Source: Mycoplasmatota bacterium (lineage in GTDB: Bacteria; Bacillota_I; Bacilli_A; MAG-NZ). Taken from it: 64,000 nt of DNA. Positions 23,945 through 33,422 of the stretch are shown piece after piece. The translations under genes and the position numbers were made by a program. Each line of letters starts with the position of its first letter. The stretch's first letter is position 1. The stretch lies in the NCBI GenBank assembly GCA_018394315.1, contig CP074575.1:868001-932000 (forward strand). The letters are read 5' to 3'. The notes beneath the pieces are model-generated. The model did not search any database and had not been told where the DNA came from. It saw nothing but the letters and a program-made list of their open reading frames with translations.

Positions 23945-24036
23945 GTATTGGAAATGGGCACTAAACAAAATTAGCATTAGTCACAAGTATAACTATTTTA
24001 TAAGTAAATTATTTTTGAAAGGAATAAGGTGGGACA

Positions 24037-24672
24037 TTGTACGAAAAAGAATTATTTAATATGTGGGCAGACAATTATGATAATGATGTAAAACTATATG
24101 AAGAATCCTCTAGTTATCCATTTGCAGGATATAAAAGTAACTTGAACAGGATATTTAATTTAGTTATGAAAAAAAAATATAGTAGAGTTTTAGATATAGG
24201 ATTTGGTACTGCAGTATTAACTTCCAAGTTATATGAAAATAATCACGATATAACAGGTATTGATTTTTCCGAAAGAATGCTTGAAATCGGACAAAAGAAG
24301 ATGCCTAGTGCTTCTTTATATTTATCTGATTTTAGAAAGGGAATAACAAATAAAATCAAATCAAGATTTGATTTTGTCTTATTAACTTATTCTATTCACC
24401 ATCTATCATTTACCGAAAAAGTGAAACTATTAAGAGAATTGAAGAACTACCTGAATGAAGATGGATTAATAATAATAGGCGATGTATTATTTGAAACATC
24501 TAGTGACCTAAGTAAGAGTAAAGAAAAGCATAGTAGAATTTGGGATGATGAAGAATTCTACATAGTTATCGAAGAATTAACAGAAGAAATTTCGAATGAT
24601 TATCAAGTATCATATCATATTGAAACTCATTGTTCAGGAGTTGTGATATTAAGAAGATTAGCTCAGACCTAA
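24037..24672 (+). CDS. Class I SAM-dependent methyltransferase
   Basis: FNMWADNYD, VLDIGFGTA, GIDFSERML, YSIHHL; TTG start. Confidence 0.9.
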   Translation: MYEKELFNMWADNYDNDVKLYEESSSYPFAGYKSNLNRIFNLVMKKKYSRVLDIGFGTAVLTSKLYENNHDITGIDFSERMLEIGQKKMPSASLYLSDFRKGITNKIKSRFDFVLLTYSIHHLSFTEKVKLLRELKNYLNEDGLIIIGDVLFETSSDLSKSKEKHSRIWDDEEFYIVIEELTEEISNDYQVSYHIETHCSGVVILRRLAQT

Positions 24673-24758
24673 AAATTAGTATGACTATAGTTTGTAAGAT
24701 TAAATTTAGTCCAGTATGATATTATATTTACAGAGATTATAAAACTAGGGAGGATATT

Positions 24759-25619
24759 ATGATTAAGACTAATAAAGAATTAATCGTTATGCAAGCAGTA
24801 CAAGGACAAGTTAGCCATCCAAAAGTAAGACAACGAGTTACTGCGGAAGGTAAAACAATTACAGTGCCTAACGTTGGTGGAATTACTTATGGGGTTCATG
24901 TTGGTGATGATGCCTTTGGGTTAATGGTGGATCATTTAGAGCCAGCTGTATCTATGAAGAATACGGATAAAGTTGATAACGTAGGACTTATGACATTAGC
25001 TTGTCCGGGTAATTATGCTAGAGTTATTAGTGGCGAAGCAAAGGGTGATGTTGGATATGTGTTAGGTACACATGGAGGAATTGATCATACTATAGTTGAG
25101 TTTGCAGAAGAGACTTTAGAAAAAATGGTTATCGGAGATAAGATTTTAGTTAAAGGTCATGGTAAAGGACTAGTATTACATGATTACCCAAATGTTGATG
25201 TTATTTCAATTGACCCAGAATTATTAGAAAAAATTGATATAGAGGAAGAAAATGGAAAAGTTGTATTTCCGGTTGTAGCTAAAATACCAGGAGCAGTAAT
25301 GGGTTCTGGTGTTGGAAGTGGTACTAGCCATAGTGGTGACTATGACATTATCACTCATGATAGAGCGTTAATGAATGAACTAGGAATTGATAAGCTTAAG
25401 TTTGGTGATTTTGTATTATTAGAAGATAGTGATAATACTTATGGTTTAGGTGGATACTTCCGTGGGGCTTCTACAATCGGTATAATTGTTCATAGTGATT
25501 GTTTAATTACAGGTCACGGGCCAGGAGTAACAGTTGTTATGACTAGTAAAAAAGGTGATATAGTTGGCAAAATTGATCCAACTGCAAATATTGGGAAATA
25601 CATAAAAGAATCTAAATAA
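24759..25619 (+). CDS. DUF4438-like protein of unknown function
   Basis: KTNKE, GGITY, DHLEPAVS, GSGVG, DYDI, HSDC..GHGPGVT motifs. Confidence 0.8.
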   Translation: MIKTNKELIVMQAVQGQVSHPKVRQRVTAEGKTITVPNVGGITYGVHVGDDAFGLMVDHLEPAVSMKNTDKVDNVGLMTLACPGNYARVISGEAKGDVGYVLGTHGGIDHTIVEFAEETLEKMVIGDKILVKGHGKGLVLHDYPNVDVISIDPELLEKIDIEEENGKVVFPVVAKIPGAVMGSGVGSGTSHSGDYDIITHDRALMNELGIDKLKFGDFVLLEDSDNTYGLGGYFRGASTIGIIVHSDCLITGHGPGVTVVMTSKKGDIVGKIDPTANIGKYIKESK

Positions 25620-25626
25620 TGTAATG

Positions 25627-25662
25627 CACCCCAAAATCCGGAAACGGATCAGGGGTGTTTTT
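25627..25662. terminator. Intrinsic terminator between convergent genes
   Basis: CACCCC..ATCCG-GAAA-CGGAT..GGGGTG followed by TTTTT. Confidence 0.75.
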
Positions 25663-25751
25663 AAATGGCAAAATATAGTGTACATAAGTGAGTTAAAAAT
25701 ATGAGACATGTTGATTAATACCTTTTTTAATTAAGAAAGAATATTGCTGAT

Positions 25752-26651
25752 TTATACTAATATTTCCGAAATCTTCATCTTAAATTCTTTCTCAAAATCA
25801 TCTTTAAAGTGGTTGAATTTATTGTCGTTATTCTCAAGAAATAATGCATAAAAAGACTTTTTAGCTAAAGAAATCGCTTCACTCTTTTTACCAGATAATA
25901 ACTCGGCTAATGCTGCATAGTAATATAAATTACTTAAAGATTTCAATGTTTTATGTTCTAAACAGTAATCTATACCAAGCAACGATATTTCTAAAGACTT
26001 GCTATATTCTCCCGAATACCCCAACAGATGAGAAGTATTTGCATATAAACTAGCTACAATACTAGCTTCATTATGGATATCTTTATTTATATCAATAAGT
26101 TTGTTATACATCTTTATTGTTGATGCCCTAATCCCTTCTTCTGAATCAATCATTGCAACATGCATCATGACATTGAGTTCAACTAAATTTAATGATTGTT
26201 TTTTTATACAATTTTTATAATCAATAAGTTTCATTAATTCTGCTTTAGCAGAACTTCTAGTAATTATATTCAATCTATACTTCGAGACGATTCTTAAATA
26301 GGTTATTAGTTCAACATTTAAATCTGATAATAATGCATTAGGATTTATATCATTGATTATTTTGTAAACGTCACTATACCTGTACTGACTTAATAATCTA
26401 AAACAATTCATTAAATTAGATCTTTCATGATTATGTAAAATATCGTATTTTTGAAATAGGTCAACCACGTCAATTTTAAGTCTCTCTGCAAACATAATTA
26501 ATTTATCATTTGGAATGTAATATTCGCCAGATAAATATCTCTTATATTGTCTAAATGAGCATATACCTTCTATAAATATTTCCTTTGATATTTTTCTTCC
26601 TTTTCTTTCTTCGTCGATAAATATTCCAAATCTTTTCTTAAAATACTGCAA
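25752..26651 (-). CDS. XRE-HTH + TPR transcriptional regulator (RRNPP/Rgg/PlcR-like)
   Basis: N-terminal FGIFIDEERKGRKISKEIFIEGICSFRQYKRYLSG HTH; helical C-terminus with TPR-like units (LYANTSHLLG..EYSKSL..GIDYC..LSNLYYYAA..AISLAKKS). TTG 26651 is the likely start; ORF track starts at 26681. Confidence 0.82.
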   Translation of the reverse strand: MQYFKKRFGIFIDEERKGRKISKEIFIEGICSFRQYKRYLSGEYYIPNDKLIMFAERLKIDVVDLFQKYDILHNHERSNLMNCFRLLSQYRYSDVYKIINDINPNALLSDLNVELITYLRIVSKYRLNIITRSSAKAELMKLIDYKNCIKKQSLNLVELNVMMHVAMIDSEEGIRASTIKMYNKLIDINKDIHNEASIVASLYANTSHLLGYSGEYSKSLEISLLGIDYCLEHKTLKSLSNLYYYAALAELLSGKKSEAISLAKKSFYALFLENNDNKFNHFKDDFEKEFKMKISEILV

Positions 26652-26674
26652 ATTAACACCCACTTCCACAAAAA

Positions 26675-26689
26675 GTGACAAAAATGTCC
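26675..26689. promoter_or_regulatory. Candidate operator GTGACA-N4-TGTCC between regulator and peptide genes
   Basis: Imperfect palindrome in the short divergent intergenic gap. The same 11 fixed bases recur at 6988-7002. Confidence 0.4.
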
Positions 26690-26737
26690 TGTTATTTCTT
26701 ATTATATCATTATAAAATACATAAAGGAGATGATTTT

Positions 26738-26854
26738 ATGAAAAAAAATGTCATTCTATTACTACTAGCATTATTTGTTTTTACAGGTGGCTTTGATATC
26801 GGAACTATACAGCCTCTAGGGTTTGGTGACATACCACATGAAGAGATATACTAG
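26738..26854 (+). CDS. 38-aa secreted pre-peptide, candidate quorum-sensing pheromone precursor
   Basis: SD AAAGGAG; MKKNVILLLLALFVFTGGFDIGTIQPLGFGDIPHEEIY* has a basic N-terminus, hydrophobic core and short polar tail; divergent from the RRNPP-like regulator. Confidence 0.8.
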   Translation: MKKNVILLLLALFVFTGGFDIGTIQPLGFGDIPHEEIY

Positions 26855-27137
26855 TCATCAATTTAAGATTAACTGCTAAATCTTAGCATAAATAATTGAA
26901 CCGAAATTATTGATCGTATGTCTACTAACATGGCATAGGTATATCTGATTTGTATGAAAAGGTAAGAACTTTATTCCTCGTATTCTTTGGGAATTATAGT
27001 TCTCTTTTTCAAACAGATTAGTAAAATCTTCGACTAAAGTTTCAAAATTAAACTTATAAACTTAATAGTAATTATATAACAAAGTATTTAGGTGTCAAAT
27101 TACATGCCATATTTATTTTGAACAGGAGGTTATAACA

Positions 27138-27923
27138 ATGATATTTAATGAAAAATTTTGGGAAAAAGATAATAGCCAGTTAACTGATGGATTACTTCAA
27201 AACGAATTATTAGATGAAGAAAAATCTAGTAAACCTATTATTTTAAGTGGTTTTCCTAATTATAAAATAATTTCTAAAAAAGACAAAGTCAAAAACCCAG
27301 AATTCTTTAAAGACCTGATAAGTGCACTCTCTAAATTAAAGATAATAAGAGGTGAAGATAGTCATACACAGAAAGAAATATTAAAATCATTGATAACTGG
27401 GTTAGAGTTCCATGATAAATATACTAGTGGACATTCTGATGCGGTATCTGTTATTTCACTTAAGATTGGAAAATCGATGGGCTTAACTGATTCAAAAATA
27501 AATGATTTGCATCTAGCCGCTTTAGTACATGATATTGGAAAAATTATCATTCCAACTGATATCTTAAATAAGACTACTAAGTTAACAGAGGAAGAGTTCT
27601 CACTAATTAAAAGTCACTGTAAAGCAGGATTTGATATATTAACAAGAACAACTTCGCTTAATGATATAGCGAATTACGTACTTCATCATCATGAAAGATG
27701 GGATGGTAAAGGTTATCCTAATAGGATAAAAGGAAAACAAATACCTATAATTTCACAGATTATTGCAGTTGCAGATGCCTGGAGTGCAATGACGTCGGAT
27801 AGACCTTATAGGGGAAAACTTGATAAATGTGTTGCGCTAGAAGAACTTCTCCAAAACAGAGGGACGCAATTTTCTCCAGAAGTTGTGGATGCATACACTA
27901 GAGTCCTTAGTATTAAAAGCTAA
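27138..27923 (+). CDS. HD-GYP domain phosphodiesterase (c-di-GMP)
   Basis: HDKYTSGHS, HDIGK, HHERWDGKGYP, VADAWSAMTSDRPYR and GTQF all intact. Confidence 0.92.
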   Translation: MIFNEKFWEKDNSQLTDGLLQNELLDEEKSSKPIILSGFPNYKIISKKDKVKNPEFFKDLISALSKLKIIRGEDSHTQKEILKSLITGLEFHDKYTSGHSDAVSVISLKIGKSMGLTDSKINDLHLAALVHDIGKIIIPTDILNKTTKLTEEEFSLIKSHCKAGFDILTRTTSLNDIANYVLHHHERWDGKGYPNRIKGKQIPIISQIIAVADAWSAMTSDRPYRGKLDKCVALEELLQNRGTQFSPEVVDAYTRVLSIKS

Positions 27924-27949
27924 AATTTCAATAAAATTATGATATGTCT

Positions 27950-27983
27950 GAAATACCCTAGAATTGAGGGGTATTTCTTTTTT
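27950..27983 (+). terminator. Intrinsic terminator
   Basis: GAAATACCC...GGGTATTTC followed by a T-run. Confidence 0.7.
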
Positions 27984-28166
27984 AATTGGTACATGTATAT
28001 TTTACTATTGAAATAGGAGTTTATTTTGTGGAAAAAATCTAATATATGTTTAGTTATTTATATAAATATTTTCTATGTCATTCTAGAAGTCTTAATTTTC
28101 TACAAGAAGAAACAAATTTAATTGTTAAAATACAATAAGTTTAGAAATAGAAAGTATGGAGAGATT

Positions 28167-29354
28167 ATGCTTAGAAGCGAACAAAGGATATCAATTTTAT
28201 TAGGAATAATTTTATTTTTTTATTTTTATCCTTTTCTATTTCCTACAGTGGATGAGTCTTTAGCACCTATAAACTTATATATTATTCCGTCATTTTGGTT
28301 AGTGTTAACTATTTATGTAAGAAGTCTTAATAAGGTAACCTTTAAGGCCAAAAGAAGATTTATGAGCAATATAATCTTATGGGTTTTTATTACAGCTTTC
28401 ATATATTTATTAGTTTTTTTTGCTGCAGGAATTATGGATGGATTTGGAAAGAATCCCTATGATACTAGACCTATTGGAATAATTAAGAATGTATTTATAT
28501 ATGGTTCTGTTTTGATTTTAAAAGAATTTGTAAGACATTATTTAATTAACTCAACTCCTAAAAGGAAGATTATACTTTATGGTACGTTGATCGTATTGGT
28601 ATACAGTGTTATAGATGTTAATATGGTCCATTTCTTGAGTTTGAAAGTTACTGAGGATATTGTCTCTTTTGCCATATCTAAATTTATGGTAGTTATTGCA
28701 CTAAATATATTCTTAACTAATATCGCTTACTTATCTGGATATATCCCCTGTATTATCTTTGTATTCTTGCTCAAATTACCATTATGGACTTTAGAAGTTA
28801 TTCCAAATCTTACATGGCTTTCAACTGCTGTGATTGGGCTGATTATTCCTGTGCTAGGTTTAAGTATAATAAATGATAATTATAAAAAGTTATCTAAAAA
28901 AGTGAAAAAAATTCATTATAAGAAACAAAACTTATACGGATGGGTAATAACAGGATTTATATCGGTATGTATTGTATGGTTTGTAGTAGGAGTATTTCCG
29001 ATTGCCCCAACCGTTATAATTACTGGTAGCATGGAACCAGCTATATATCCGGGAGACGTCAGTATTATTAGAAAAATAAATAAGAGTGATGTTGTTGAAG
29101 GAGACGTTGTTCAGTACTGGACAGGAGACTACTTCATTATCCATAGAGTGATTGATATTTATGAAGAAAATGGAACTACGTATTACGTGACTAAGGGAGA
29201 TAATAACCCAAGTAAAGATAGTAAACCTGTAGAAATAGAACAAATAAAAGGTATACTAATGTACACTATTCCTAAGATAGGAAAACCGGCGTTATTGTTG
29301 AAGTCCAAGTCGGATGAGGATATTAATGAACAGATTATGACTTCAAATGATTGA
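28167..29354 (+). CDS. sipW: Signal peptidase I, SipW/SEC11-type, with multi-pass membrane N-domain
   Basis: Ser-His-Asp type motifs TGSMEP, IIHRV, TKGDNN..D, IPKIG; about 7-8 TM segments upstream. ORF track starts at 28122. Confidence 0.85.
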   Translation: MLRSEQRISILLGIILFFYFYPFLFPTVDESLAPINLYIIPSFWLVLTIYVRSLNKVTFKAKRRFMSNIILWVFITAFIYLLVFFAAGIMDGFGKNPYDTRPIGIIKNVFIYGSVLILKEFVRHYLINSTPKRKIILYGTLIVLVYSVIDVNMVHFLSLKVTEDIVSFAISKFMVVIALNIFLTNIAYLSGYIPCIIFVFLLKLPLWTLEVIPNLTWLSTAVIGLIIPVLGLSIINDNYKKLSKKVKKIHYKKQNLYGWVITGFISVCIVWFVVGVFPIAPTVIITGSMEPAIYPGDVSIIRKINKSDVVEGDVVQYWTGDYFIIHRVIDIYEENGTTYYVTKGDNNPSKDSKPVEIEQIKGILMYTIPKIGKPALLLKSKSDEDINEQIMTSND

Positions 29355-30390
29355 GAGTGAGGAAAATAAAATGATTCAATTAAGTAAGAAAAAGAAGGTT
29401 TCAGTGATAACAGTGTTGAGTTTATTGATTTTATTGTTTGGAATACTCTCCATTTTGAGATACTTTTCTCCAAAAGAGGTGGAAACTGAAGACAGTATTT
29501 ACGATTATAATTTTGAAGGTGCTTTGGATTATTATGTTTATTTAAAACCGAATACCATTTACGATAAACATTACTTAGAAAGTGATAGACTATATATATC
29601 AGAACTGACAGATTTTATAGATGTTAGATTCAATCTAAATTATAGCGCATTAGAAGATGCAGAAATCTCATACAATTACGTTATTTATCCATCCATAGAA
29701 TCAAGTACCGCTCAAAACTCAGATGATGATATTATATGGACAAAGAATTACGACAATGTATCTTCTGCACAGGAAAAATTTGTAGGCAATGAGTTCATCA
29801 TGAGTAATAATTATAAGTTATACTTAGATGATTATATTTCTTTTATTGATGAGGTCTATAAAGAACTAGATATAAATACTAGTAATAATCTTATTATAAA
29901 TTTTAAAGGTAATCTAATTATTGAATATGATGGAAAAATTAGTTCACAGGAGTTTAGCCAAAGGTTAGAAATTCCTTTAAAGCAAAAAATATATAAAATA
30001 ATTAGTGATGAGAATTTTGAAATAAGTGAATCAATTATTGAACTAAATATTGAAACAAGTAGAACAAATATAGTTGCTTTAGTCGTATTTATCTGCTCCA
30101 TAATCATGTTAATTTTATCTATAAAGTTTATTTCTATTAAAGAGCCTAAGACAGATAGAGAAATTACTATTAATAAAATATTCAATGAACATAGTGAAAG
30201 ACTTGTACAATTAGCTACTCTAACCTATGATATACCAAAGTTAATAGTTGTTGATGATTTCAAAGATTTACTTAAAATTGCTGATGAGATAACTCAACCC
30301 ATATTTTACTATATTAAGGATACGAATAATAATAAGATAATAGAATTCTTGGTATTCGATAACGAAAGAAGTTACAGTTTCATACTTTAA
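29347..30390 (+). CDS. DUF5305-like membrane protein (SipW-associated)
   Basis: N-terminal TM, YYVYLKPNTIY, second TM, and tail VDDFKDLLKIADEITQPI; overlaps the sipW stop. Confidence 0.7.
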   Translation: MIESEENKMIQLSKKKKVSVITVLSLLILLFGILSILRYFSPKEVETEDSIYDYNFEGALDYYVYLKPNTIYDKHYLESDRLYISELTDFIDVRFNLNYSALEDAEISYNYVIYPSIESSTAQNSDDDIIWTKNYDNVSSAQEKFVGNEFIMSNNYKLYLDDYISFIDEVYKELDINTSNNLIINFKGNLIIEYDGKISSQEFSQRLEIPLKQKIYKIISDENFEISESIIELNIETSRTNIVALVVFICSIIMLILSIKFISIKEPKTDREITINKIFNEHSERLVQLATLTYDIPKLIVVDDFKDLLKIADEITQPIFYYIKDTNNNKIIEFLVFDNERSYSFIL

Positions 30391-30432
30391 TTAAGATTGT
30401 AATAGATAATGATTAAAAACGGTTAACTAAGG

Positions 30433-30485
30433 AAAAAGAGCCTAAGGAAATGAAGTTGATTCATTTCTCTTAAGACTCTTTTTTA
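30433..30485. terminator. Bidirectional intrinsic terminator
   Basis: AAAAAGAG..GAAATGAA..TTCATTTC..CTCTTTTTT between convergent operons. Confidence 0.75.
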
Positions 30486-30507
30486 GTCTAAGTGCATTGT
30501 TTATAAA

Positions 30508-31176
30508 TTATGGATTTACATTAGGAGCATTAAATTGCTCATATTCAAGTACTACGTCAAACGAAAAACTCTTTTCTTGTGATGGATTTTCTGATTCGGG
30601 AAGTAAGTGAATCTTCAAAGCAAAATCAACACAATCTCCAACATCTAAAGGAACAGTTTCCAACATTCCTGGAGCATAGAAGTAATTATCATTATCACGA
30701 AGTGTCAATACACCAGGTAAGTTAGGTAATGGGTCATCAAAGAAATTCGGTAAGAAACGTATATAAGCTCCAAGTATCAAAGTGTCTAGTAGTTCATTTA
30801 CTTCAGCATCACTTAGATTGTAACCATCAACAGCAACATTAATCAGTCTAATATTTTTGAGTTTAGCTGGAATGGTACCGTTGTTCATGATGCAAGCGGA
30901 CGCATCTGCATATGCACCGGGATAAAGGTTATCAAAATGTACTTGTAATATCTTAGAATTACCAATGATCTCTGAAGTACCTGTATTATATATACCCCAT
31001 TGTGTATTATCTATGCATGGGTTAGGATTTGCACTATCGCATTCAAATATTACAGATAATTCACCTGTTTCAGCCATACCAGTAACAGTTAACGTATCAG
31101 TCCAGTATGCATAAGAAAATCCAGCAACCATTAATGATAGAACAAGTACTGAAAGTAATGTGTACGTCTTTTTCAT
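30508..31176 (-). CDS. SipW-dependent signal-peptide protein, TasA/CalY-like fibre subunit (222 aa)
   Basis: MKK-hydrophobic-GFSYA|YWTDTL.VTG..ETGEL; NLYPG, NNGTIPA; C-terminal F..VLEYEQFN. Confidence 0.8.
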   Translation of the reverse strand: MKKTYTLLSVLVLSLMVAGFSYAYWTDTLTVTGMAETGELSVIFECDSANPNPCIDNTQWGIYNTGTSEIIGNSKILQVHFDNLYPGAYADASACIMNNGTIPAKLKNIRLINVAVDGYNLSDAEVNELLDTLILGAYIRFLPNFFDDPLPNLPGVLTLRDNDNYFYAPGMLETVPLDVGDCVDFALKIHLLPESENPSQEKSFSFDVVLEYEQFNAPNVNP

Positions 31177-31240
31177 ATTCCCTCCTTATCACTCAGATAG
31201 AATAAGTTATTTTATAACCTATTAAATCTAAATAAGTTTA

Positions 31241-31282
31241 GAAAAATAATCGACTAAACTCAGTTAGTGATTAGTCGATTAT
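31241..31282 (-). terminator. Intergenic hairpin/terminator between the two TasA-like genes
   Basis: 12-bp inverted repeat ATAATCGACTAA...TTAGTCGATTAT, followed by a U-tract on the minus strand. Confidence 0.7.
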
Positions 31283-31305
31283 ATTCTTTTTCTAGTTAAA
31301 TAATT

Positions 31306-31815
31306 TTATGGATGTTCGTTAAATTGATCGTAATCTAGTACAAATGTTGCTGATACTGATTCATTTTGAGTTAAATTATCAGCAGCTTCATCGACCCATA
31401 TATGAATCATGAATGGAATCATCTCACCTACGTCTAAGGAATGAGGCAATGGCTGAACGTCAATATAAATATAGCTTTGTAAGTTAGGTGCTAATAAATA
31501 ATCAATAGTTTCTGAAATTTGACCACTTACAGCAGGAATAGTTCCTGTGTTTACGATCATTCCCTCATATAAGAAATGTGCTCCTGGATACAAATTGTCT
31601 AAAGTTAGTTCTATCAGATCATTTTGCTCATTAATCATATATGTATTATAAGGTGAATCAACTTCAACATAACCTGGAGGTGCAAATTCTACTCCGAACT
31701 CACCCGTTGTTGCTGTACCAGTTAAAGTTAAAGTATCAGTCCAGTACGCATACGAGAAACCTGCTGTCATTAATGACAGAACCATGATTGACAACAATAC
31801 ATAAATCTTTTTCAT
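31306..31815 (-). CDS. SipW-dependent signal-peptide protein, TasA/CalY-like fibre subunit (169 aa)
   Basis: MKK-hydrophobic-GFSYA|YWTDTL.LTG..TTGEF; NLYPG, NTGTIPA, ADNLTQ; SD AGGAGG; paralog of 30508-31176. Confidence 0.8.
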   Translation of the reverse strand: MKKIYVLLSIMVLSLMTAGFSYAYWTDTLTLTGTATTGEFGVEFAPPGYVEVDSPYNTYMINEQNDLIELTLDNLYPGAHFLYEGMIVNTGTIPAVSGQISETIDYLLAPNLQSYIYIDVQPLPHSLDVGEMIPFMIHIWVDEAADNLTQNESVSATFVLDYDQFNEHP

Positions 31816-32704
31816 ATTTCCTCCTAAAATTTTATTTATTTTGACTGTGACAACACAGTAAAAACCAAGAATATAAATCTAATTAGGGTAACTTGATGTT
31901 ATTTTGATTGAGTGTTGCTTAACATCTTTTTTTCATATTTTCATTTTTGTAGCTCTTGAGTTCATTTTTTCATTAAATTGTAATCACATTATATTTGGAC
32001 TTATTTAATTATTTGTCGCTTTAAGTCATTGCAAAAAAAATTATTAATTCAATATTTAATTAGTTGATTTCGTGCGTTCGTACTTTGTATAATCAAGAAT
32101 TATAAAATCTATTTGTGTCAATAGATAGGTAATTCTGGTGCAGTTTTACTTGGAAAGTATCTTATTCGATTATTTAATAAGATAATGTAATTTTTTAAGT
32201 TTTATTTAGGAAAATTAAATTTTATTTCTTAATATCATCCTTAATTAAAATTTACAAAAAAATTAAATTTTCCCAATGATTATATTCTCCTAGAAAATAT
32301 ATGTGTGAATTTCTATGAATATTCATAGTAACTAGAAAGAATAGTATTTGTATGGTAATTTGCTTCATAGTAGTTTTATTTCTTAGATTTCTTGAACATC
32401 TAATAGAGTGTAAGCATTTTGCTCTTATTTCCCGGTTTTATAAGTATATGTACCAAAATAGGTAAATATTAGGAGACACTCTTAGCAAATAATAAATATG
32501 AATAATTACTACGAAGTTATAGTCGATTGAATGTAAAAACTGTCAAATATCTAGATAATAGTGAGTATTTGATTGTTTCTTGTATAAATGTTTTTTCAGT
32601 TTAGAAAGTAATTCGAATAAGAATTCTAAAGATATTGAGTAATAATCGATTACTAAGATTGTAGTGAGTGTGAGCGATTAATCTAAGTGAAAAATGAAAT
32701 AGAA

Positions 32705-32801
32705 TTGACTTTTTGATATTTCGCTGTTATCATTTGTATAAGTTAATATGTTTTCAGAGTTTAGAGAGATAGTATTTTTTTGAAAACTATCTCTTATTTT
32801 T
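32705..32801 (+). promoter_or_regulatory. glpP promoter and GlpP-type antiterminated leader
   Basis: TTGACT-17-TATCAT; AAGTTAATAT..TTTTCAGAG..TAGAG overlaps the terminator AGAGATAGT...ACTATCTCT-TATTTTT. Confidence 0.65.
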
Positions 32802-32888
32802 ATTATTAATAGCGCTGGTATGGCGTGAATCATGAGTTTATCATATACATAAATGAGTGTAACTTTAAGTTTAAAGGAGGCGGAAGTT

Positions 32889-33422
32889 GTGAATCAAAGA
32901 ATAATACCCGCGATTACTTCAGTAAAGAAATTTGAAAAGTTTCTTGAGACCGATTATGAATACTGCGTTTTAATGAATTTACATATCTCACTACTAAAAA
33001 CTCTCGTTGAGAAAGCGCATGATAAAGGTAAGAAGTGTTTTTTACATCTTGATTTAATTAATGGGATCTCGAGTGATGAGTATGGTGTTGAGTATGCTGT
33101 TCAGCATATTAAGATAGATGGTATAGTATCTACAAGAAACTCTGTGATAAAAGCAGCTCAAAGGAAAAAAATAGTTTCTATTTACCGGATTTTCTTAATA
33201 GATAGTATGTCGTTAAACCGTAGTTTAGAAAAGCTAGCACAACTAAAGCCAGATTATGTTGAGTTACTTCCTGCGATTGCTTTTGATGTTATGTCTAGAG
33301 TGAAAAAAGAAACTGATATACCGATTATTGGTGGTGGATTAATTGCTTCAAGGGAAGATATAGATAGGTGTATAGCTAGTGGGATGATTGCTGTTACCAC
33401 TAGTAATCGAGTTTTATGGTAA
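32889..33422 (+). CDS. glpP: Glycerol-3-phosphate-responsive antiterminator
   Basis: IIPAI, HLDLINGI, DGIVSTR, RIFLIDS, PDYVELLP, PIIGGGLI, AVTTS..LW. SD AAGGAGG before GTG 32889. Confidence 0.93.
   Translation: MNQRIIPAITSVKKFEKFLETDYEYCVLMNLHISLLKTLVEKAHDKGKKCFLHLDLINGISSDEYGVEYAVQHIKIDGIVSTRNSVIKAAQRKKIVSIYRIFLIDSMSLNRSLEKLAQLKPDYVELLPAIAFDVMSRVKKETDIPIIGGGLIASREDIDRCIASGMIAVTTSNRVLW

Follow-up and report, generated by a model that had tools for sequence, protein, structure and literature searches.

The question raised by this locus is whether a 38-aa open reading frame (ORF), set divergently from a gene for an XRE-HTH/TPR regulator, encodes the pheromone precursor of an RRNPP-type system and, if so, which of the known receptor-pheromone systems the pair most resembles. 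The locus lies within the window, the whole stretch of 64,000 nucleotides that was analyzed. The reading adopted here, with a probability of roughly 0.78, is that the two genes form a working quorum-sensing pair of RRNPP type and belong to a five-TPR (PlcR/ComR-like) subfamily that is undescribed. Sequence and model together provide (i) the receptor fold, (ii) a paired ORF with a signal peptide, (iii) an operator at a fixed spacing from the -10 hexamer, and (iv) OppA-type genes for import in the host. The pair had been put forward in an original prediction and is upheld; the operator, the subfamily and the candidate targets were absent from that account.

The receptor and its divergent small gene

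The receptor gene (25752-26651, - strand) encodes a protein of 299 aa from its start on record, TTG 26651 (P0003), and has an N-terminal XRE-type HTH and a C-terminal TPR-like domain of the PlcR/ComR type. This architecture, anticipated by the original prediction, is reflected in a match to RNPP_C (PF18768) at E 9e-11, with 42.1 bits against a cut-off of 26.5, and in a weak match to HTH_19 (E 0.026, below cut-off). An AlphaFold model of the receptor, made from 20 homologues, is all helical (pLDDT 89.9) and of the TPR-type fold that such a model had been expected to show. In Foldseek, the PlcR-PapR7-DNA complex 3u3w is the first match (E 3e-8), followed by PlcR, ComR, Rgg and PrgX, and in the VIA fold search PlcR (Z 20.8, rmsd 7.8, 276 aligned) is followed by ComR (Z 17.8, rmsd 8.1, 279 aligned), both at 13-17% identity to the receptor. 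In a profile of 147 receptor sequences, positions 6-267 align with PlcR (E 2e-14), and Rgg-type regulators are matched mainly over the HTH region (positions 4-120, E 3.5e-9). The Pfam, full-length profile and fold matches thus agree with the RRNPP-type receptor that was claimed, and those to PlcR place it in the five-TPR clan of PMC12700828. The receptor is the single PF18768 gene of the 2.17-Mb host genome, in which neither phmmer nor the PF18768 search finds a paralog. A mobile-element origin of the locus was considered and is unsupported, as no receptor match is found in phage or plasmid collections and no GC anomaly is seen at the locus.

The propeptide gene (26738-26854, + strand) encodes 38 aa and is recognized by its translation, which agrees exactly with that of the predicted ORF, by its Shine-Dalgarno (SD) sequence and by the pairing of homologous loci. 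The mechanical ORF list gives just a 59-aa GTG extension at this position and, thus, the 38-aa ORF was overlooked there, as had been claimed. The SD AAAGGAG (26723-26729, + strand) lies 8 nt before the ATG, and the gap to the TTG of the receptor gene is 86 bp, within the 90 bp first estimated. The propeptide is laid out as a basic and hydrophobic signal-like region (residues ~1-18), a spacer and an acidic C-terminal signal region. Its N-terminus begins with MKK and goes on into a hydrophobic stretch (Kyte-Doolittle mean of 3.6 over the best 9 residues), and by composition it resembles the Sec-like signal proposed for it. In type, the basic n-region and the hydrophobic h-region recur throughout the 78 precursors of homologous loci. 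For the propeptide of the window, Pfam and NCBIfam give no match, and a clear A-x-A cleavage site is missing. Of the five RRNPP criteria in PMC10075063, one asks for a Sec signal in the propeptide, for which the two N-terminal regions are there and a clear cleavage site is not. The other four describe this locus: a receptor of 250-500 aa (here 299 aa), a peptide-binding TPR domain (here PF18768 above cut-off together with the fold matches), a propeptide of 10-100 aa (here 38 aa) and adjacency of -60 to 400 bp (here 86 bp).

Pairing and precursors across homologous loci

A word-index search returns a single relative (Candidatus Izimaplasma sp., 36% identity), and a receptor profile search returns 253 representatives at E<=1e-30; two receptor representatives are recorded from Ca. 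Izimaplasma bacterium HR1. Profile matches occur in 110 of the 301 genomes of the class, many of them weak HTH matches, and the strong matches are concentrated in families f12, f15, f18 and f19.

A divergent small ORF that combines an SD with a basic and hydrophobic N-terminus is found, by a filter relaxed post hoc after inspection of the loci, at 75 of 100 homologous receptor loci (the window locus included and the loci being related by descent, so that the counts are not independent), versus 0, 3 and 6 of 100 at three equally sized control positions. A stricter filter, applied first, found it at 49 of 96 loci versus 2, 4 and 9 in the controls. Of 114 receptor records, 11 were cut by locus edges and set aside; the need for 200 nt or more on either side left 100 of the other 103 for the count. 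The small, putatively secreted ORF beside homologous regulators, on which the original prediction was to stand or fall, is thus present. The distance from receptor to propeptide gene ranges from 75 to 136 nt and clusters at 79-97 nt. Chance formation of the ORF in AT-rich DNA, beside an orphan HTH-TPR regulator, could be argued from the peptide's want of a database match and from the 25 of 103 homologous receptors that are without such an ORF; however, the excess over the controls, the fixed distance and the box and -10 hexamer described below, which go with the ORF and are mostly absent from peptide-less loci, leave this explanation hardly any probability.

The receptors without a small ORF include a group (L012, L014, L071, L083, L097, L100, L101, L104 and L111) that is also box-less and sits directly behind a gene that we take to be trpS-like. 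Most of these trpS-linked copies appear to be in tandem, ahead of a complete cassette of receptor, peptide and third gene in family f15. For two further receptors (L090 and L106), the divergent ORF is an acidic one of 50 aa that has a good SD and no hydrophobic signal, possibly a leaderless variant.

The third gene encodes a conserved protein of ~91 aa (e.g., L003:835-1113, - strand; alignment A3) that comes directly after the propeptide at 33 of 72 loci with a peptide and at none of the 25 without one. Of the 301 class genomes, 31 have it, and no copy was found in that of the host. The protein is modeled as a four-helix bundle (pLDDT 95), with no Pfam match above cut-off, no usable Atlas match and no Foldseek match at E<=0.001; its fold matches generic four-helix proteins only (best Z 11.4). 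As a guess, it may serve as a feedback modulator of the receptor.

Tandem repeats are found in 20 of the 78 precursors, in units of 13-20 aa whose start lies close to a [DG]-F dipeptide preceded by a hydrophobic residue. The precursors of 70-167 aa (L015, L041, L050, L051, L056, L060, L066, L080 and others) have up to ~ten such units in tandem, some with up to ~ten identical units of 13 aa, and the precursor of the window holds one signal copy. Pheromone duplication within one precursor is known for Rap/Phr (PMC11343458). The anchor [DEGA][FYW]x[DNEK], a motif picked after the data were seen, is present in 63 of the 78 precursors and corresponds to G28-F29 in the propeptide of the window. Based on the repeat units and the anchor of its relatives, the candidate mature signal is placed near GFGDIPHEEIY (residues 28-38; codons 26819-26851, + strand), and the signal start guessed beforehand, after IQPL, fits this position. 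The precursor tails are net negative in 65 of 71. A D-[LI]-P-x-E motif, found in two of the 78 precursors including that of the window, resembles the ADLPFEF of PapR (PMC5007282); the likeness may be homology or chance, and with it the active form of the signal may be shorter. Several of the repeat precursors are above the 100-aa ceiling of RRNPP_detector and over assembly gaps.

Peptide sequences vary with receptor clade across the family. In a Mantel test that takes kin as independent (n 63), receptor distance correlates with candidate-peptide similarity at r -0.42 and with signal-sequence similarity at r -0.21. The co-variation of receptor and peptide that had been suggested is seen family-wide, but the receptor tree is not closely tracked at this locus, where the most similar peptides (L006, L087, L081 and L053) come from receptors outside the nearest clade of the window's receptor, itself placed in the tree with a support of 0.13. 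The most similar peptide of the set, that of L006, is from the same bacterial family as the host.

A small ORF that is real and tied to the regulator might still not encode a shared pheromone; it could instead encode a peptide with an inhibitory role, a timer by which the cell senses itself, or a micropeptide that is anchored in the membrane and acts in the producer cell. The precursor of the window, without a clear signal-peptidase site, and the four of 78 precursors that are shortened to just 20-30 aa are compatible with such roles. By contrast, precursors with up to ~ten identical 13-aa units fit released ligands, the peptide sequences track receptor clade and an OppA-family gene is present in 53 of the 54 hosts chosen for strong receptor matches, which makes such roles quite improbable. 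The propeptide reading is instead favored by the family-wide pairing and the tandem-repeat precursors.

Operator, promoters and candidate targets

The spacer between the two genes includes a putative operator (26672-26691, + strand) that is ComR-box-like, with the palindrome core GACA-AAAA-TGTC at 26677-26688. A de novo motif from the spacers of the 78 peptide loci has the palindrome core G[AT]CA-N4-[TC]G[CT]C, and a box of at least 8 bits is found at 71 of these 78 loci versus three of the 25 peptide-less loci. TAnnnT occurs exactly 24 nt after the box core in 67 of the 71 box loci (11 of 71 at the next-best offset), the equivalent in the window being the putative -10 hexamer TAAAAT of the propeptide promoter (26713-26718, + strand). 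The operator is an exact match to AAAG-N(1,4)-GACA-N4-TGTCCTG, the 5' part of the ComR-box pattern (PMC4072589), which is matched once in the window and in 0 of 100 shuffles. The recognition helix of the receptor reads R34-Q-x-x-R38; of 147 receptors, 94% keep R34 and 89% keep R38, and the two align gap-free with R35 and R39 of ComR, which contact GACA (PMC5131891), within an HTH alignment that is weak overall (E 0.24). A sigma70 scan finds no -35/-10 pair for the propeptide gene, and ComR promoters are without a -35 (PMC4072589). A box fixed in the -35 position is the geometry of an activator and, together with the conserved DNA-reading arginines, points to peptide-activated autoinduction.

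The same pair could work in the opposite sense, with the receptor bound to the box as a repressor until released by the peptide, as in TprA- or PrgX-like derepression. Precedents include TprA, a PlcR ortholog that represses phrA (PMC6753895), and PrgX, which binds DNA without the signal (PMC5007282); moreover, the box is found immediately upstream of the SD of the receptor gene, a position that suits repression of that gene. Derepression is nevertheless considered unlikely, since in 67 of 71 loci, as well as at distant promoters, 24 nt separate the box from the -10 that follows it, a fixed spacing typical of an activator that stands in for a -35, as it does in ComR promoters (PMC4072589), and since the sigma70 scan gives the peptide gene no -35/-10 pair. 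Peptide-dependent activation of the propeptide gene may be joined by autorepression of the receptor gene. A possible extended -10 of the latter (TGATATAAT; 26701-26709, - strand), read from the sequence, overlaps the divergent promoter and would set the operator inside the receptor transcript, which suggests such autorepression less strongly. Among the 71 loci, 13 have a reverse-strand -10 at offset 20 and 20 have one at offset 25, evidence that is weak because the region is AT-rich.

The PrgX system has an antisense arrangement. In the window, a perfect sigma70 consensus promoter (12/12, 16-nt spacer) from the promoter scan lies antisense to the propeptide gene (27071-27098, - strand). At a score of at least 11, the window locus is alone among 73 in having an antisense promoter, and a PrgX-like arrangement is therefore rejected as a trait of the family.

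Only two intergenic sites of the host genome have a perfect core, the following C and a -10 at offset 24: the propeptide promoter and G000:C1:1084022. The latter ranks second in a scan with a matrix that included the window locus's own box (18.4 versus a reversed-genome maximum of 15.1); it is one palindrome among five intergenic ones and, as other spacer lengths give similar small counts, it is a candidate only. The site precedes genes for a 122-aa signal-bearing protein, of which no homolog was found, and an ABC/FtsX fusion, for which the best NCBIfam match, below cut-off, is a lactococcin-972-type exporter. A comEC-family gene is present in the host, yet has no box ahead of it among the top matches. 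Near the candidate target, G000:C1:1079085-1081814 (L115:1086-3815) encodes a double YheC/D-like ATP-grasp protein.

In the genomes of relatives, the box and -10 are found together at non-peptide promoters, with 52 matches in 23 of 31 genomes (none for the reversed pattern) and, in a further set, 28 matches in 14 of 17 genomes (two for the reversed pattern). The matches listed include 45 distinct non-peptide sites, as counted by hand. Eight are ahead of GGDEF/EAL genes; five, in five genomes, precede a PEMT-like membrane gene paired with a GH3-family gene (L233, L235, L246, L248 and L252; one pair domain-scanned and four judged alike by eye); three precede large secreted proteins with DUF6531 or DUF7948; two are ahead of C39-peptidase ABC exporters and four ahead of other ABC exporters; and two precede tandem MreB pairs (L234 and L236), both in genomes without mraY. 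Some of the remaining sites are probably chance matches.

An HD-GYP-type (c-di-GMP phosphodiesterase-like) gene (27138-27923, + strand; HD_5 E 2e-38) starts 283 nt past the propeptide gene of the window. It fits the c-di-GMP theme of the relatives' boxes and is a possible target of read-through; no terminator-like site was found in 25550-27250. Rfam gives no match in 24000-33000 and, thus, a riboswitch ahead of the HD-GYP gene was not found. Further along, 28122-31815 encodes a SipW/archaeal-type signal peptidase fusion, a DUF5305 protein and, in two convergent genes, proteins with SipW-type signal peptides (TasA/camelysin-like). This possible biofilm-matrix cluster is also present in G004 and G001.

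Hosts, proposed mechanism and comparison with known systems

The Izimaplasma group is free-living and wall-less (PMC8397711), and mraY is above cut-off in four of the 54 hosts chosen for strong receptor matches. Judged from these genomes, the subfamily seems common among free-living relatives of the mycoplasmas, most of them apparently without a cell wall. The host of the window carries mraY, spo0A, comEC and several OppA genes; based on mraY and spo0A it is probably walled and spore-forming, unlike most of its system-bearing relatives. The TypA of the host is closest to records labeled Mycoplasmatota (89%) and Izemoplasmatales (80%), and the host keeps mraY and spo0A although its closest named relatives carry the former label. 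The same-genus genome G001 (55% complete) has the receptor only as a stop-interrupted fragment, followed on contig C20 (L008/L286) by a gene for a 109-aa signal-bearing protein and a permease-like gene, a layout like that of the host's candidate target. A 27-nt match in G001 was dismissed as merely a shared SD. Synteny across four genomes of the family was uninformative, and the flanking DUF4438 gene was not found with the query used.

The proposed mechanism begins with export of the precursor through Sec and its trimming outside the cell to an acidic peptide of ~7-13 aa, for which there is about an even chance that it starts at or after G28-F29. The peptide would very probably re-enter via Opp and bind the TPR pocket of the receptor. 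The bound dimer would then probably read GACA-N4-TGTC via R34 and R38 in the -35 position and activate the propeptide promoter in positive feedback, and may repress its own overlapping transcript as well. A small regulon would be activated by the receptor; its most likely member, the 122-aa secreted protein with the ABC/FtsX exporter (G000:C1:1084110-1086604), is put at even odds. The downstream HD-GYP gene would perhaps be switched on by read-through, although this step is doubtful.

The wider proposal, towards which the analysis leans slightly, is of a widespread undescribed subfamily native to a Mollicutes-related lineage and kept through wall loss in Izemoplasma-like free-living bacteria. 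In it, a PlcR-like receptor would be combined with an operator of ComR type, with Sec precursors that are encoded divergently and hold up to ~ten pheromone copies, and with a dedicated third gene, whose 91-aa four-helix product is probably a feedback modulator. Cell density would thereby be linked to the turnover of c-di-GMP, to secreted proteins of an antagonistic kind and to MreB paralogs. If true, this circuit would be the first of RRNPP type among wall-less bacteria and would suggest that the GACA-box mode of activation is older than streptococcal ComR. The circuit, from receptor and precursor to operator and candidate regulons, is readable from sequence in dozens of genomes, most of them without mraY, and thus offers testable peptide/receptor/operator triples for density-dependent behavior in bacteria that are free-living and wall-less. 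It also offers a natural series of precursors with one to ~ten pheromone copies and, in the third gene, a candidate new modulator protein.

The survey of PMC10075063 covers 7,974 complete Firmicutes genomes plus viruses. In the parts available, Acholeplasma, Tenericutes and Mollicutes are not named in its main text or supplement, and Izemoplasma, Izimaplasma and Haloplasma are absent from the supplement, which includes 17 Erysipelotrichia pairs; a distant relative may be among them. The available main texts of PMC9765709 and PMC12700828 do not name these Mollicutes-line taxa, and literature linking RRNPP systems to such taxa was not found among the matches listed, which covered few subscription papers. 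The locus would therefore appear, on its sequence, to belong to an undescribed RRNPP subfamily that is not PlcR, ComR or Rgg proper.

The likeness to PlcR/PapR includes the best sequence and best fold match, the size class of an HTH plus five TPRs, and a signal-peptide precursor with a C-terminal signal. The receptor identity is only 17-18%, however, and the hosts differ. The PlcR-box pattern has no match in the spacer and, with one mismatch, has six matches in the window versus 7.4 expected by chance. While papR lies ~70 bp downstream of plcR and in line (PMC6753895), the genes of the window are divergent. The gatekeepers K87 and K89 of PlcR (PMC5007282) align with S and Y in the receptor, alignment A1 shows no conservation of the TPR Asn column, and the PapR pentapeptide x-P-[FY]-E-[FYH] is only partly resembled by the IPHEE of the window's propeptide.

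With ComR/ComS the window's pair shares the GACA-N4-TGTCCTG operator ahead of a -10 and the R-Q-x-x-R recognition helix, and ComR, of which ScuR and SarF are paralogs, is the second-best fold match (Z 17.8). By contrast, the identity is 13-16%, and the spacing from box to -10 is one base above the N20 of PMC4072589. The same source describes ComS as a net-positive peptide of 21 aa encoded downstream of comR, whereas the precursor in the window is divergent, 38 aa long and acidic at its tail. Bacteriocin genes are under the control of ComR and ScuR (PMC6703854), which resembles some of the candidate targets of the window's system. No box is found before competence genes among the top genome matches.

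The original prediction of an RRNPP-type pair is supported, but Rgg/SHP is not the closest analog, which is instead PlcR by fold and sequence and ComR by operator. Rgg/SHP pairs are typically divergent in layout, as is the window's pair, and share similarity in the HTH and lower-ranked fold matches. SHPs are short, hydrophobic and exported by PptAB (PMC10075063), whereas the precursors of this family are 35-167 aa with Sec-like signals and acidic tails. The sequence similarity to Rgg stops before the TPR domain. TprA/PhrA is likewise divergent. TprA is a PlcR ortholog that controls its own peptide gene and a lantibiotic cluster (PMC6753895); compared by description only, it differs as a repressor from the activation suggested by the geometry of the window. 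Similarly to 20 of the 78 family precursors, Phr precursors can have multiple pheromone copies (PMC11343458). The family units are, however, 13-20 aa with up to ~ten copies, of which the window's precursor has one, and Rap is without an HTH and has nine TPRs (PMC12700828), unlike the HTH-bearing receptor. As an outgroup that mixes traits of PlcR and ComR, the subfamily bears on the question of how five-TPR receptors came to diversify (PMC12700828).
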